Below, in pieces: positions 33,078 through 50,910 of a stretch of DNA of 64,000 nt (position 1 is its first letter; every line of letters starts with the position of its first letter). A program made the position numbers and the translations under genes. The stretch is from positions 224,001-288,000 of the forward strand of contig CAVRCJ010000003.1 in assembly GCA_963719515.1 (NCBI GenBank), given 5' to 3'. The notes under the pieces are model-generated. The model was not told the origin of the DNA. It ran no database searches and worked only from the letters and a program-made list of their open reading frames with translations. Source of the stretch: an uncultured cyanobacterium. Lineage in GTDB: Bacteria > Cyanobacteriota > Cyanobacteriia > CAKZMO01.

Positions 33078-35498
33078 CTAGGCATCCTTCACTTGTACCG
33101 CAAATCGTGCGCTCCGCAGCGTTTTCTCCTCAGAGGCGACGAATTCAAAGTGAATCTCCCCGCTCTGTACAGGGGGAATATCCACATAGGCGATGCCCAA
33201 AGGCGTCATCACAGCGTCTTGGGTCTGGCTATCAGAACCAGTACCAGAGCCAGCGCTAGAGCCGGACTGGGTCCACCAGCGGAGGGTAAACTCTTCGGGG
33301 ACCTGTACCCTGAGCACATACCCCGGCTTGATGCGAGCCACGCGGCGGTTGGGTTTCCAGATTTCCAGATAGCGGCGATTATCTCTAGGCTGTTGGTAGC
33401 GCTCTGCCACCTCTGGAATGTAGTCGAATACCTTGCCGTCGCTGAGCGATCGCAGCAGCTTAATATACTCCGAGTGCGCCCACATCAGCGGCATGGCCGA
33501 GCCGGTGGGCCGCCCGAGGTGCATATGGGCCTCGGGGATGTCATCTGTGTCCCAGCTTTGCTCCGGCAGCATTCCCGTGTCGTTGGCGAACCCCTCTATT
33601 GACTCCAGCAGTGGCCCAATGTCGTGGCCTGCCGCTAGCTCGTAGTGGGCCCGCTCTCCGGTGAGCAGGGGCCAGATGCGGCCCACGCCAGTCTCCTCGA
33701 AGGCGGTGCCGTCGGCCTGCTGGCCGTAGCCGTCGTGGTTGTAGCGGTGCCAGCCTACGCCGCTCGGCGTTTCGGTGCGTAGCGCGGCGTCTACGACCTT
33801 GAGCGAATCGACGATTAGCGGATCGTGGGGGCTGCGAATGCCGTAGCGCACCAGCTCTAAAAAGCCCCCATCTACAACGTCTTTGGCCGGAAACGCCTGG
33901 TCGCCTTGAGGGCGGTTGATGATGTAGAGCGTAGCGGTGTTGGGATCTTCGCAGGGAGCAGGGTCGTCTATCTCGGCGGGCAGCACCCGGATAAAGTGGC
34001 GGGGGATATCGGGGACAAGACTGCCTTGAGTGGTCACCGTCCAGGCTTCGAGGTGGTCTTCTAAAAAGTCAGCGTACTCCTCAAGGAACTGCGCCGTCTC
34101 GACTTCATCCCGCAGGCGGGCAAGGCGGGCTGCACAGACAAGAGCCGCGATGCTGGTGGCCAGAGTCGAGGGGGAGTATCCGCAGGCCTCTTCCCAGCGC
34201 TCTTGCTCCGTGGCGGGGCCGTGAATAATCAAGAAGCTCGCCGCCTTCTTCACCATTGTGTAGGGGTCGAAGTTTTGCAGCGTCTCTTCGCAGTGGAGGG
34301 TGTAGGCCAAAATGATGGGTAAGGCCACTTGGTCAAGCTGTACCCCGCACCAGTGGGCGTCGCCGTTGATCCAAAAGTTTTGGGGGAAGCCGCCGCTGTC
34401 CTGCTGGCTGGCCGCTAGGTAAATCAGCGCTCGCAGCGGCGTTTCCGAATTGCCCGCTGCCAGCAGCCCGCGAGCGCTGTTGACCATATCCCGCACCCAC
34501 ACGAGGTGATAGCCCCCCTGCTCATCGTCTCCTTTGGTGTGGCCCCAGGGAATGGCGAGGGAGGCAATCAGCGCCCCGGGATAGGTCTTGTCCTCATGGG
34601 CCATCAGCAGGCTGAGGCTGGTGTGGTAGAGGTGCCCTTCATCGTGGGTGAACTCGACTAGGGCAGCGCGCGTGTCGTTGCAGCAGGGCGGCTCCCACTG
34701 CTGCTGAAACTGCTCCTTTTGGGTTTCGAAAGGTTCGCTGAGCGCCTGCAGCACCGTCGTCACCGCCGCGTGACGACAGTCGCCGAAGCCAATGCCCAGG
34801 GTAAAACCATCGTCTTGCCGCCAGTCCAGCTCCGCCGTCAGGGCCGTGTTTCCGTCCTTGGCTTGGTCAGACTGATAGTCGAGCTGTCCGTTGTCGCGCA
34901 GGTCTTGCCAGCCGTCGCTAGTGCCCACATACCCAGCGGAGGCCTGGATCAGGGGAACCGTCGCGGCGATCGCCAGCCAGGTCTTTTCGCGGGTCGCCAC
35001 CAAGACGGTGCGCCCCGCCACGTTCAAAATCTGCGCAGTATTGCCCCAGCCCGCCACATCTATATGGGGCGCACACAGCACGTAAAGCTGTAGCGCATCG
35101 AGGACAGCGCTATCCCCTGAGAGGCGCGTGTGCTGCAGCACGCAGGGAGAGATAGGTGATGAAATAATTTCCTTGATAATCTCGAAGCGTCCATCGGGGT
35201 CCCGGTTGGTAACCCGGTAGCCCAAGGCGTGGGTCCACATTCGTTCGGTGGTCGACTGCAGGTGCGATTTCTCGCTTTGAAACTCGCCTTCTAGGGTGAC
35301 GAGATACTGCAAATCGCGGGTCTGGGGCCGATCGATGGTGGGGTAGTATAGCTCGGTGAGTACACCGTTCCACAGCGTAAACCAGACGCGGCTGGCGGTG
35401 GAATAGGCGGTGCCGACGCCGTCTTTATTGCCCTGAGTCCACCGAGGCTCGGCTCCAAAGGGGCCAAAGGCTTGCCGCTGTCCGCGAAGCTGTATCAT
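33078..35498 (-). CDS. Glycoside hydrolase family 15 glucoamylase/glucodextranase
   Basis: AFGPFG.EPRW, GYHLVWVRD, QERWEE, RYNHDGYG, WPLLTGER and SAMPLMWAHSEY. ATG 35498 chosen because the track start lies inside the IS. Confidence 0.9.
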   Translation of the reverse strand: MIQLRGQRQAFGPFGAEPRWTQGNKDGVGTAYSTASRVWFTLWNGVLTELYYPTIDRPQTRDLQYLVTLEGEFQSEKSHLQSTTERMWTHALGYRVTNRDPDGRFEIIKEIISSPISPCVLQHTRLSGDSAVLDALQLYVLCAPHIDVAGWGNTAQILNVAGRTVLVATREKTWLAIAATVPLIQASAGYVGTSDGWQDLRDNGQLDYQSDQAKDGNTALTAELDWRQDDGFTLGIGFGDCRHAAVTTVLQALSEPFETQKEQFQQQWEPPCCNDTRAALVEFTHDEGHLYHTSLSLLMAHEDKTYPGALIASLAIPWGHTKGDDEQGGYHLVWVRDMVNSARGLLAAGNSETPLRALIYLAASQQDSGGFPQNFWINGDAHWCGVQLDQVALPIILAYTLHCEETLQNFDPYTMVKKAASFLIIHGPATEQERWEEACGYSPSTLATSIAALVCAARLARLRDEVETAQFLEEYADFLEDHLEAWTVTTQGSLVPDIPRHFIRVLPAEIDDPAPCEDPNTATLYIINRPQGDQAFPAKDVVDGGFLELVRYGIRSPHDPLIVDSLKVVDAALRTETPSGVGWHRYNHDGYGQQADGTAFEETGVGRIWPLLTGERAHYELAAGHDIGPLLESIEGFANDTGMLPEQSWDTDDIPEAHMHLGRPTGSAMPLMWAHSEYIKLLRSLSDGKVFDYIPEVAERYQQPRDNRRYLEIWKPNRRVARIKPGYVLRVQVPEEFTLRWWTQSGSSAGSGTGSDSQTQDAVMTPLGIAYVDIPPVQSGEIHFEFVASEEKTLRSARFAVQVKDA

Positions 35499-35583
35499 GG
35501 GAAATTTGCTGAACGGGATTATCCTTTCAAGGTACGAAGGGCAGAGCAGCTTAGCGTCAATCGGAAGAGTTATATTTTGGCTC

Positions 35584-35605
35584 GGGGCGAGGGTGACCTC
35601 GCCCC
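35584..35605. terminator. GC-rich hairpin GGGGCGAGG-GTGA-CCTCGCCCC
   Basis: Perfect 9-bp stem. In the reconstructed empty site it lies about 35 nt downstream of the stop of 37017-37496. Confidence 0.5.
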
Positions 35606-35667
35606 TGCTGCATTGGCCCCATCGCCTAGGGCCTTGACCAAAAATCATGGGTCTAAAGCCCCGTCCT

Positions 35668-35808
35668 TCAGGACGGCTTCTCTAAATGTAGGCGATCTAT
35701 CCAATCTTCTACCAGTTGAGTCATGGTCTTGTCCCTCTCTTTTGCAATCGCCCTAAGCTTTTGCAATCTTTTAATAGAGACTCTTAAATTAAGCTGTCCT
35801 TTTGCCAT
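35668..35808 (-). CDS. 46-aa ribbon-helix-helix (CopG/Arc-like) protein, absent from the ORF track
   Basis: Manual translation MAKGQLNLRVSIKRLQKLRAIAKERDKTMTQLVEDWIDRLHLEKPS*: beta-strand QLNLRV followed by two amphipathic helices. Confidence 0.72.
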   Translation of the reverse strand: MAKGQLNLRVSIKRLQKLRAIAKERDKTMTQLVEDWIDRLHLEKPS

Positions 35809-35851
35809 ACTGCCTACACAATGCCTACGCATCTATGCTATCATAAACAGT

Positions 35852-36976
35852 ATGAGAACATTGAAGTTTAAGATATACGAGCACAAGCGGAACCGGCACC
35901 TAAAGCGCACTATTAATGCTGCTGGGGTGATTTGGAACCACTGCATTGCTCTCCACAAACGGTACTACCGTATGTGGGGCAAACACCTCAATTGCTCTAA
36001 ACTTCAGTCTCATATTGCCAAGCTACGGAGGCGCAATCCGTTTTGGCAGTTGGTGGGGTCTCAGGCTGTGCAGGACATCTGCCAGCGAATTGAAAAGGCA
36101 TACCAGCTGTTCTTTAAGCATCACGGCAAAGGCTATAGGCCGCCTAGCTTTCAGAAGGTAAGGCGATACAAGTCGTTCACCCTAAAACAGGCGGGATACA
36201 AGCTGCTCAATGGTGGTCGTATCAAGATAGGCAGCAGGGTCTACCAGTATTGGAATTCAAGGGAGATAGAGGGCAAGGTTAAGACCGTCACGGTGAAGCG
36301 ATCGCCTTTGGGTGAGCTGTTTTTAGCCGTTGTGGTGGACCAGGAAGCTGAACCAGTTCAAGGCATCGAGACGGGTAAAACCGCTGGTGCTGATTTTGGA
36401 CTGAAGACGTTTCTCACTTTGTCAGATGGTACTCAAATCGAGTCTCCTGAATTCCTGAAAGCATCGCTCAAAGACCTTTGCCGAGCTAGCCGCAACCTAT
36501 CGCGCAAGCGAAAAAAGTCGGCAAACTGGCACAGGGCAAGACTAAATCTAGCTCGCTGCCATGAGGCCATAGCCAATAGGCGACGAGATTGGTTTTGGAA
36601 GCTTGCCCACCGGCTAACCGATACCTACGATGCGCTCTACTTTGAGACGCTGAACCTGAAAGGGATGCAGCGGCTATGGGGCCGGAAGATATCGGACCTA
36701 GCCCTAGCTGAATTTCTCGAAATCCTTCAGTGGGTGGCAAAGAAAAAAGGCAAGACCGTAGCATTCATCGACCAGTGGTATCCCAGCTCTAAAACTTGTA
36801 GCTGTTGTGGGCACGTACTGAAGGAGTTAGATCTAAAACAACGGCAGTGGGATTGCCCTATTTGCAACGAACATCACGATCGAGACTTAAATGCTGCAAT
36901 AAACATTCAACGGGTTGGGGCGTCAACCCGTGGGCTAGGCGATGTCAGACAGGCTCAGCCTGCGATCGCTGCTTGA
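35852..36976 (+). CDS. tnpB: RNA-guided endonuclease TnpB (374 aa)
   Basis: MRTLKFKIY N-terminus; RuvC-I GADFG, RuvC-II YFETL, Zn finger CSCC..CPIC, RuvC-III DRDLNAA. Confidence 0.93.
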   Translation: MRTLKFKIYEHKRNRHLKRTINAAGVIWNHCIALHKRYYRMWGKHLNCSKLQSHIAKLRRRNPFWQLVGSQAVQDICQRIEKAYQLFFKHHGKGYRPPSFQKVRRYKSFTLKQAGYKLLNGGRIKIGSRVYQYWNSREIEGKVKTVTVKRSPLGELFLAVVVDQEAEPVQGIETGKTAGADFGLKTFLTLSDGTQIESPEFLKASLKDLCRASRNLSRKRKKSANWHRARLNLARCHEAIANRRRDWFWKLAHRLTDTYDALYFETLNLKGMQRLWGRKISDLALAEFLEILQWVAKKKGKTVAFIDQWYPSSKTCSCCGHVLKELDLKQRQWDCPICNEHHDRDLNAAINIQRVGASTRGLGDVRQAQPAIAA

Positions 36977-37035
36977 TTCCAGAATCCCCGCTCTTCAGGG
37001 CGGGGAGTACGTCAATTTAACGGTCCGTGACTTCA
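36870..37035 (+). ncRNA. Predicted TnpB omega/reRNA (scaffold overlapping the tnpB 3' end plus a flank-derived guide); 5' boundary approximate
   Basis: Inferred from known TnpB biology and the right end at 37015; guide would begin TTTAACGGTCCGTGAC. Confidence 0.55.
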
Positions 37036-37496
37036 GGAACAGTGACGATAGCGGTGCCAAAGGGAATGAGTCCCTCCAGCATGGGGGTGGTGCCGAATAC
37101 CCGGTAAGGAACGGTCAGACCGTCTAGTCGCCCGCGGACGCGCGAATTGAGCATTACAAGTCGTACGGTCTCCCCTTCGGGAATCGCCTCGTCAAACGTA
37201 ACCGTAAACTCTTCGAAGCCGTAGTCGACGCTGGCCGGAATTGCGTTGCCGTCTTCGTCAAGGACCTCGACGTCGTCTAGTTGGTGAAACGTGACGCAGA
37301 CCACCTTGACCCGGTCGAGGCTTCCGCTCGAGGCCTCGATATCGATGAAGTGGTCCTGGTTTCGCTCTAGCGTGCCAGCATCAGCGACGTAGGGGGCTCT
37401 GATTTGAGCAACAGCGTCAACGACGATCGCCGGAACGGCAACCGTGGCTAGTGCGATCGCTGAAAGCGTTCCAAATACATGCTTTTTCATACCCAT
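37017..37496 (-). CDS. Secreted protein, DUF2808-like
   Basis: Signal peptide; beta-rich with VTFDEAIPEGETV and YRVFG. Confidence 0.65.
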   Translation of the reverse strand: MGMKKHVFGTLSAIALATVAVPAIVVDAVAQIRAPYVADAGTLERNQDHFIDIEASSGSLDRVKVVCVTFHQLDDVEVLDEDGNAIPASVDYGFEEFTVTFDEAIPEGETVRLVMLNSRVRGRLDGLTVPYRVFGTTPMLEGLIPFGTAIVTVPEVTDR

Positions 37497-50640: not shown

Positions 50641-50910
50641 ATGTGGTTGAGCTTACTTCAGGCGCTTGGCCTTGCCTGGTGGGTAGAAGTTAAAACGGAG
50701 AATCCGAACTACACCTACTACTTTGGTCCCTTTGTGGCGCAGGACGAGGCAGAAGTGGCCAAGGGTGGCTACGTTGAAGATTTGGAGCAGGAAGGGGCGA
50801 CCAATATTCGGCTTTCCGTGCTGCGGATGAAGCCTACAAAGCTGACCATTGAGGGCAATACGGTGGCCCATGAAAGCACCCCAGGGTCGGCGCTAACGGG
50901 TCAGGCCTAA
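50641..50910 (+). CDS. DUF1816-like small cyanobacterial protein
   Basis: WWVEVKT..P..TYYFGPF..GYVEDL.QEGA motif; ATG 50641 follows GGGAG. Confidence 0.8.
   Translation: MWLSLLQALGLAWWVEVKTENPNYTYYFGPFVAQDEAEVAKGGYVEDLEQEGATNIRLSVLRMKPTKLTIEGNTVAHESTPGSALTGQA

Follow-up and report, generated by a model that had tools for sequence, protein, structure and literature searches.

The window, by which we mean the whole stretch of 64,000 nucleotides that was analysed, carries on its minus strand an open reading frame for a predicted Arc-like ribbon-helix-helix (RHH) protein of 46 aa (35668..35808), divergent from a tnpB gene on the plus strand (35852..36976); the tnpB start at 35852 and the ATG of the small gene are 43 bp apart on opposite strands. 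The TnpB protein (374 aa) has its RuvC residues D181, E265 and D345 and two CxxC motifs intact, the third RuvC Asp lying in HDRDLNAA, and it matches NF040570 with 258.6 bits (cut-off 100) as well as PF01385 and PF07282 over their cut-offs. Both genes belong to a whole non-autonomous element of the IS200/IS605 family, 1,377 bp in length (35639..37015, plus strand). A BLAST search of the genome returned nine near-identical copies of this 1,377-bp unit (98.5-100% identity), and because their flanks all differ the ends can be fixed at 35639 and 37015, which places the small ORF wholly inside the element, as the initial annotation had stated. None of the genome's 14 Y1_Tnp matches lies within an element copy, and target duplications were absent in the nine copies. 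The element is a multi-copy, transposase-less member of the IS200/IS605 family that has recently been mobile.

The left end (35655..35676) comprises the guide AAAG (35655-35658) and a subterminal hairpin, CCGTCC-TTCA-GGACGG, with its stem at 35661-35676. As had been noted from the sequence, the loop TTCA (35667-35670) contains the TGA of the RHH gene. A special role for this stop codon was considered and rejected: 30 of 79 relatives (from the best 80 of 197 related stretches) have a hairpin-placed stop after K/N/Q-P-S, two members of an unrelated RHH family likewise end with K/N/Q-P-S in the left hairpin, and the placement is not special because whichever gene occupies the slot will run on into the left end. 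The right end (36941..37015) carries the guide GAAT (36982-36985), a hairpin (36986-37006) and the terminal TCAA (37012-37015), and the 3' part of the presumed omega-RNA scaffold would lie within the same interval, for which Rfam gave weak sub-threshold matches and none at the curated threshold.

To the left of the element lies the motif TTGAC (35634..35638), which is non-cognate, whereas the other eight copies follow TTAC (seven TTTAC, one CTTAC). Of 79 relatives examined, 41 could be parsed and 38 could not; in 39 of those 41 the guide changes together with the target. The window copy follows TGAC though its guide is AAAG, which pairs with TTAC in the other eight copies; in relatives, TGAC accompanies the guide CAAG (10 cases). 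Either off-target insertion or mutation may account for the TGAC of the window copy, which may excise poorly. The insertion point is 1 nt past the stop of a DUF2808-like gene (flanking genes at 33078-35648 and 37017-37496 of the window). Along the RHH strand, a glucodextranase/GH15 gene lies about 140 nt downstream of the insertion, with a likely start at 35498; the RHH promoter is directed at this gene, no terminator was found between the two, and an ATG at 35648 in the left end is in frame with it. Two of the other copies (G000:C5:45281-46657 and C10:496430-497806) show clustered substitutions at window-equivalent positions 36820-36887 and 36860-36887, respectively, a pattern that suggests gene conversion from a related tnpB.

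Translation of the minus strand from 35808 to 35668 yields the motifs QLNLRV, KRLQKLRAIAKERD and TMTQLVEDWIDRL. The ORF is intact in 9/9 element copies, with an identical protein in eight and V33L in one. An in-frame ATG at 35832 would give a longer form of 54 aa, which we judged unlikely: homologs mostly start at the position matching 35808, and only 3 nt separate the ATG at 35832 from the -10 box predicted on the minus strand. Searching one genome per species turned up 197 related stretches; the best 80 of them, making up 79 loci, were taken. All but one of these 79 carry cyanobacterial titles, and the relatives of the small ORF point to a cyanobacterial host. The core of the ORF is open in 77 of the 79 loci (best 80 of 197 stretches). 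After the two stop-bearing loci were dropped, the rest and the window gave 72 unique cores of 37 codons, with a mean pS of 0.82 and a mean pN of 0.23 in the RHH reading frame (pN/pS about 0.28), values for which pS is saturated and pN is biased downward by the choice of homologs through protein similarity. The five alternative frames are interrupted by stops in 48-72 of the 72 cores, and the minor-allele fractions by codon position (0.25, 0.12 and 0.44) follow the pattern of a coding gene. Neutral DNA would not be expected to combine saturated third positions with an amino-acid identity of about 60-75%.

Among 50%-identity clusters, a profile search brought up 286 relatives with an E of 0.001 or less. 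Searching NCBIfam with the small protein gave no match, and its relatives in a plasmid collection (one) and a phage collection (two) are all weak and unnamed or hypothetical. Two of the checks proposed alongside the initial annotation, conservation among related elements and a dN/dS comparison, thus came out in favor of a gene: the ORF is kept, with a divergent tnpB in 47 of the 79 loci (best 80 of 197 stretches), and the 72 cores bear the mark of purifying selection. Taken together, these comparisons show that the 46-aa ORF is a real gene under purifying selection. A few RHH relatives lie opposite unrelated ORFs without a Pfam match (L034:1400-2389 and L048:2-280), and others occur in the Pseudanabaena phages ON014754.1 and MT234670.1; the RHH family is therefore not confined to IS605 elements.

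The small protein is predicted to adopt an RHH fold, with an N-terminal alternating strand followed by two helices. An AlphaFold2 monomer model built on a 108-sequence alignment has a pLDDT of 92 and helices at residues 12-24 and 29-39; its N-terminus is extended, and DSSP calls no strand there. The top rows of a Foldseek search were Arc, YiiF, ParG, PutA and CopG, with Arc (1baz) at a probability of 0.91 and an rmsd of 0.8 A over 36 columns, and no structural match reached an E of 0.001 or less (best E 0.57). VIA-align gave a best Z of 6.3 (rmsd 1.5, 43 aligned), a middling score in the tool's 'possibly a common arrangement' range, and its list is full of RHH proteins. Over both fold searches the best matches were Arc, ParG, CopG, PutA, StnY and TacA. 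The top four matches of a sequence-profile search of the PDB were ParG, CopG twice and ParD (E 0.14 or worse). In Pfam, the best match had an E of 0.0023, below cut-off, with weak matches to antitoxin RHH families, and the Arc family PF03869 matched 1 of the 108 family members. The fold proposed in the initial annotation agrees with the confident model and with RHH proteins topping both fold searches, each single score (Pfam, Foldseek, VIA-align, PDB profile) being non-significant alone. The outward-facing strand residues Q5, N7 and R9 are the predicted DNA readers.

The intergenic segment 35809-35851, which the initial annotation had singled out for binding and reporter assays, contains a candidate operator (35811..35828, plus strand) made of two TGCCTAC repeats, at 35811-35817 and 35822-35828, 11 bp apart. 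This putative binding site overlaps a -35-like TACACA (35815-35820) and the predicted RHH transcript start. Next to it, the near-palindromic core ATGCTATCAT (35835..35844, both strands) reads as an extended -10 each way and is a predicted two-way promoter. A repeat at a lag of 11 (at least 6 of 7 positions matching) was found in 54 of 75 unique spacers of relatives versus 1.7% in shuffles, counts that overstate independence given that the loci are kin; at the other lags from 7 to 16 it was found in 0-3 of the 75. The lag-11 repeat is absent from 21 of the 75 spacers, about ten of which, judged by eye, seem inverted instead. Among sister tnpB elements, which are kin rather than independent and some of which overlap the 75 spacers, the repeat occurs in 7/8 with this RHH gene and 0/9 with tnpA. 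With up to one mismatch allowed, the genome has 10 instances of the tandem site, nine of them inside element copies. The half-site CTAYCC, a class defined after the data were seen, is present in 42 of the 55 spacers that go with Arg5 and in 0 of the 20 that go with another residue, and a poorly resolved tree of 31 columns puts about 7 changes on this class.

For the promoter itself, one sigma-70-like site (TACACA-18-TATCAT) was found versus 0.6 expected by chance, and the promoter scan returned none on the minus strand. The tnpB strand shows an extended -10 in 61 of the 75 spacers, 31 of which have one on both strands; in shuffles the figures are about 10.6% and 0.1%, respectively. The tnpB start is 7 nt past the -10 box, so tnpB is predicted to be leaderless; likewise, an ATG or GTG lies 6-8 nt past the extended -10 in 35 of the 61 spacers, which suggests a leaderless tnpB message. 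Sisters that bear tnpA retain the -10 core without the RHH gene or the repeats, and the promoter therefore likely fires without the RHH protein. Position 35841 is T only in the window copy (TATCAT) and A in the other eight (TAACAT); the T is one step nearer the consensus on the tnpB strand.

We next consider what faces the RHH gene in its relatives. A divergent tnpB lies within 400 nt in 45 of the 79 loci by tblastn (26 at no less than 60% identity, 19 lower, mostly about 30%), and two further loci by Pfam bring the count to 47 of 79 (best 80 of 197 stretches). In four of the 79, a tnpB match is farther off or otherwise oriented, and five TnpA queries matched 0 of the 79 loci (best 80 of 197 stretches). 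By eye, the RHH gene stands opposite a noncoding stretch of about 330-350 nt (a few longer) in 21 of the 79; RNA-only loci of this kind are L044, L049, L050, L054, L057, L060, L061, L064-L067, L069, L070, L072-L077, L082 and L084, to which L029:3757-4115 can be added. An IS605-like hairpin and CTTCAC end 18 of 20 RNA-only loci examined, and such elements span several cyanobacterial families. RNAalifold predicted 34 pairs from 17 noncoding sequences, 17 of them with two-sided changes, and Rfam gave no match at the curated threshold for the RNA of these tnpB-less relatives. The RHH gene in tnpB-less elements is still under selection (pS 0.73, pN 0.13; 19 cores). The same genome holds a second element, without tnpB, whose RHH gene is of this family and 68% identical (G000:C6:326304-326870; L085, L115); it has the strand NFTIRL, ATGTGC repeats 11 bp apart and about 300 nt of noncoding DNA. 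Its ends are nearly identical to those of an autonomous element on contig C16, and the conserved 330-350 nt noncoding region could not be aligned to its RNA by blastn. In L066 the RNA region appears by eye to be split by an intron bearing a reverse transcriptase, and in L047 the ORF facing the RHH gene begins TnpB-like and runs into a PemK-like domain.

A reverse search of 401 genomes with the window TnpB matched 33 genomes and gave 30 loci; one lacked upstream DNA, and the C16 sister was added. Of the resulting 30 sister elements, 8 carry this RHH family in the slot, 12 carry a second RHH family and 7 carry tnpA; in the other 3 the slot is empty. Three of the 12 second-family genes are broken (labelled by eye), and 9/9 intact ones match Pfam RHH_1, seven over cut-off. 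This CopG-like family fronts close tnpB relatives in L120, L123, L126, L128, L130, L131, L134, L137 and L138 and near 50873 of G000:C3, and three members have their own TGCCGTC repeats with 11-bp spacing. On the TnpB tree, whose bootstrap is not fully settled, the slot labels require 15 changes versus 15.4 when shuffled, and the window TnpB is sister to that of the tnpA-bearing C16 element (98/91). Given the scatter of these labels, the left arm can be seen as a cassette open to exchange, which holds tnpA, this RHH gene, a CopG-like RHH gene or nothing, apparently joined at the conserved -10 core.

With a probability of about 0.82, we read the locus as a transposase-less element whose predicted RHH protein likely binds the two repeats in the promoter that both genes share and likely represses tnpB as well as its own gene. 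Repression of tnpB is inferred from the candidate operator, together with experiments published for other Arc proteins. Two RHH dimers would each sit on one TGCCTAC half-site, with one helical turn between the sites. On the rightward promoter, which would serve tnpB and the omega-RNA, they would cover the -35 region, and on the leftward rhh promoter the start site. The resulting negative feedback loop would keep the total output of nuclease in check as copies multiply. To move, the element would depend on TnpA in trans, for which the best candidate donor is the single autonomous sister on contig C16; its TnpB is 86% identical and it has the same TTAC, AAAG, GAAT and TCAA, with differing hairpin sequences. 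No matching tandem site was found in this sister, and cross-repression of it was rejected on that ground.

Could the ORF instead have arisen by chance, or be what is left of a decayed tnpA? It is short, falls below curated cut-offs and sits in the tnpA slot, yet it has the codon-position pattern of a coding gene and the many relatives noted above. The five TnpA proteins of the genome have no tblastn match in the left arm (best E 0.08), the small protein has no Y1_Tnp match at E up to 10, and the DNA likeness of the left arm to the C16 sister is limited to the hairpin and the -10 box. The selection data and the absence of TnpA likeness refute this explanation, to which we assign almost no probability, and with it goes the degraded tnpA fragment that the initial annotation had named as a way its proposal could fail. 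An antitoxin-like partner, in which the small protein would bind TnpB or its RNA complex and block cleavage, is improbable. Excerpts of PMC10691335 propose an archaeal RHH/MazE-TnpB complex from co-folding, and the weak Pfam matches are to antitoxin families; the protein here, however, is a bare RHH with a tail of just 6-7 residues, and the TnpB is mobile with a canonical third RuvC Asp, unlike the archaeal clade. The idea is weakened most because the same family pairs with very different TnpBs (at least 60% identical at 26 loci and less than 60%, mostly about 30%, at 19) and remains under selection in elements that have none.

It is somewhat less improbable, though still unlikely, that the repeats are bound and tnpB is not the main target, with the protein limiting itself, activating rightward transcription or chiefly controlling the omega-RNA. 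The repeats stop 7 bp before the -10 core, inside the RHH leader. Extended -10 promoters may need no -35. The 21 of 79 relatives in which the gene faces noncoding RNA only fit this alternative as well, and some RHH proteins are activators (bioRxiv 10.64898/2026.09.24.754181). Against it, the repeats overlap the rightward -35, the same placement as in the element for which repression was measured, and the -10 core is kept in tnpA-bearing sisters that lack the RHH gene and the repeats. Repression of tnpB and of the RHH gene itself thus stays our preferred reading.

A broader reading is possible, and we offer it tentatively: cyanobacterial IS605 elements may carry swappable, orthogonal repressors with their own operators and a strand-residue code, with the guide RNA regulated too. 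In the left arm, the transposase and at least two unrelated RHH families would have replaced one another time and again, each family bringing an operator of its own; Arg5 would read CTAYCC, and other residues would read CTAYRV or other sites. If so, element families in one cell would cap their own nuclease by copy number and leave the autonomous donor unsilenced. Since selection on the repressor persists in tnpB-less elements that encode only a structured RNA of about 330-350 nt, the guide RNA itself would be a regulated product. Many 'tnpB-only' cyanobacterial elements hide a predicted regulator below annotation cut-offs, and the natural variants in strand residue and operator could provide a test set for RHH specificity and small orthogonal repressor/promoter parts. 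Overall, the gene is real, the fold call correct and the function probably correct, for a kind of arrangement that has already been described. What the present comparisons add is a repeated exchange of tnpA and two RHH families in the slot, and a repeat whose sequence varies with a single strand residue.

A preprint (Moon, Zedaveinyte, Wiegand and Sternberg, 2026; bioRxiv 10.64898/2026.09.24.754181) already sets out the basic architecture and the mechanism, and the surprise is accordingly small. That study found that an IS605-encoded Arc binds the intergenic promoter, included arc+tnpB-only IS605 elements and tested them by ChIP-seq, measured Arc repression in E. coli for one clostridial tnpB promoter, reported some Arc homologs without specific binding, and pointed out that arc genes of 50 aa or fewer are missed by annotation. 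The novelty that the initial annotation implied for an RHH-tnpB architecture is lost, arc with tnpB and without tnpA being described there; Arc-like ORFs in IS605 elements were first noted in bioRxiv 10.1101/2023.11.20.567912. The string 'cyanobact' is absent from the main text of bioRxiv 10.64898/2026.09.24.754181, whose supplementary lists may include cyanobacteria, and a narrow literature search, with most subscription journals outside its scope, found no relevant description of a cyanobacterial case. Our analysis would extend the Arc-repressor model beyond Clostridia, into cyanobacteria, and names a specific candidate operator. The elements of Moon et al. share with this one a stand-alone RHH gene in IS605 ends, a divergent tnpB and a short two-way promoter overlaid by paired sites. 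The cases that they treat in detail are clostridial elements of three genes in which arc overlaps tnpA, whereas RHH and tnpA alternate among our 30 sisters; their strand residues are N5/N7/T9 with oppositely oriented sites, whereas here they are Q5/N7/R9 with direct repeats in a cyanobacterial host.

Other known systems resemble the locus in part. The IS608 ends given in a figure legend of PMC5934647 (CL TTAC, GL AAAG, GR GAAT, CR TCAA) are matched exactly by this element family, and IS1341-type non-autonomous elements likewise lack tnpA; this element differs by the extra RHH gene in its left arm. The archaeal RHH/MazE-TnpB systems (RIIIr-4), as presented in excerpts of PMC10691335, also have a small RHH gene beside tnpB; they are non-mobile, their tnpB lies downstream of the RHH gene and His replaces the RuvC-III Asp, whereas here the genes are divergent, nine mobile copies exist and the Asp is intact. 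Phage P22 Arc and the plasmid CopG and omega repressors share the predicted fold and the use of two sites in adjacent major grooves, and differ in sequence (about 20% identity), in site sequence and in the transposon context found here. The DNA-reading triad of P22 Arc, given as Gln9/Asn11/Arg13 in a passage of PMC12645479, is the same as the predicted Q5-N7-R9 of the small protein.
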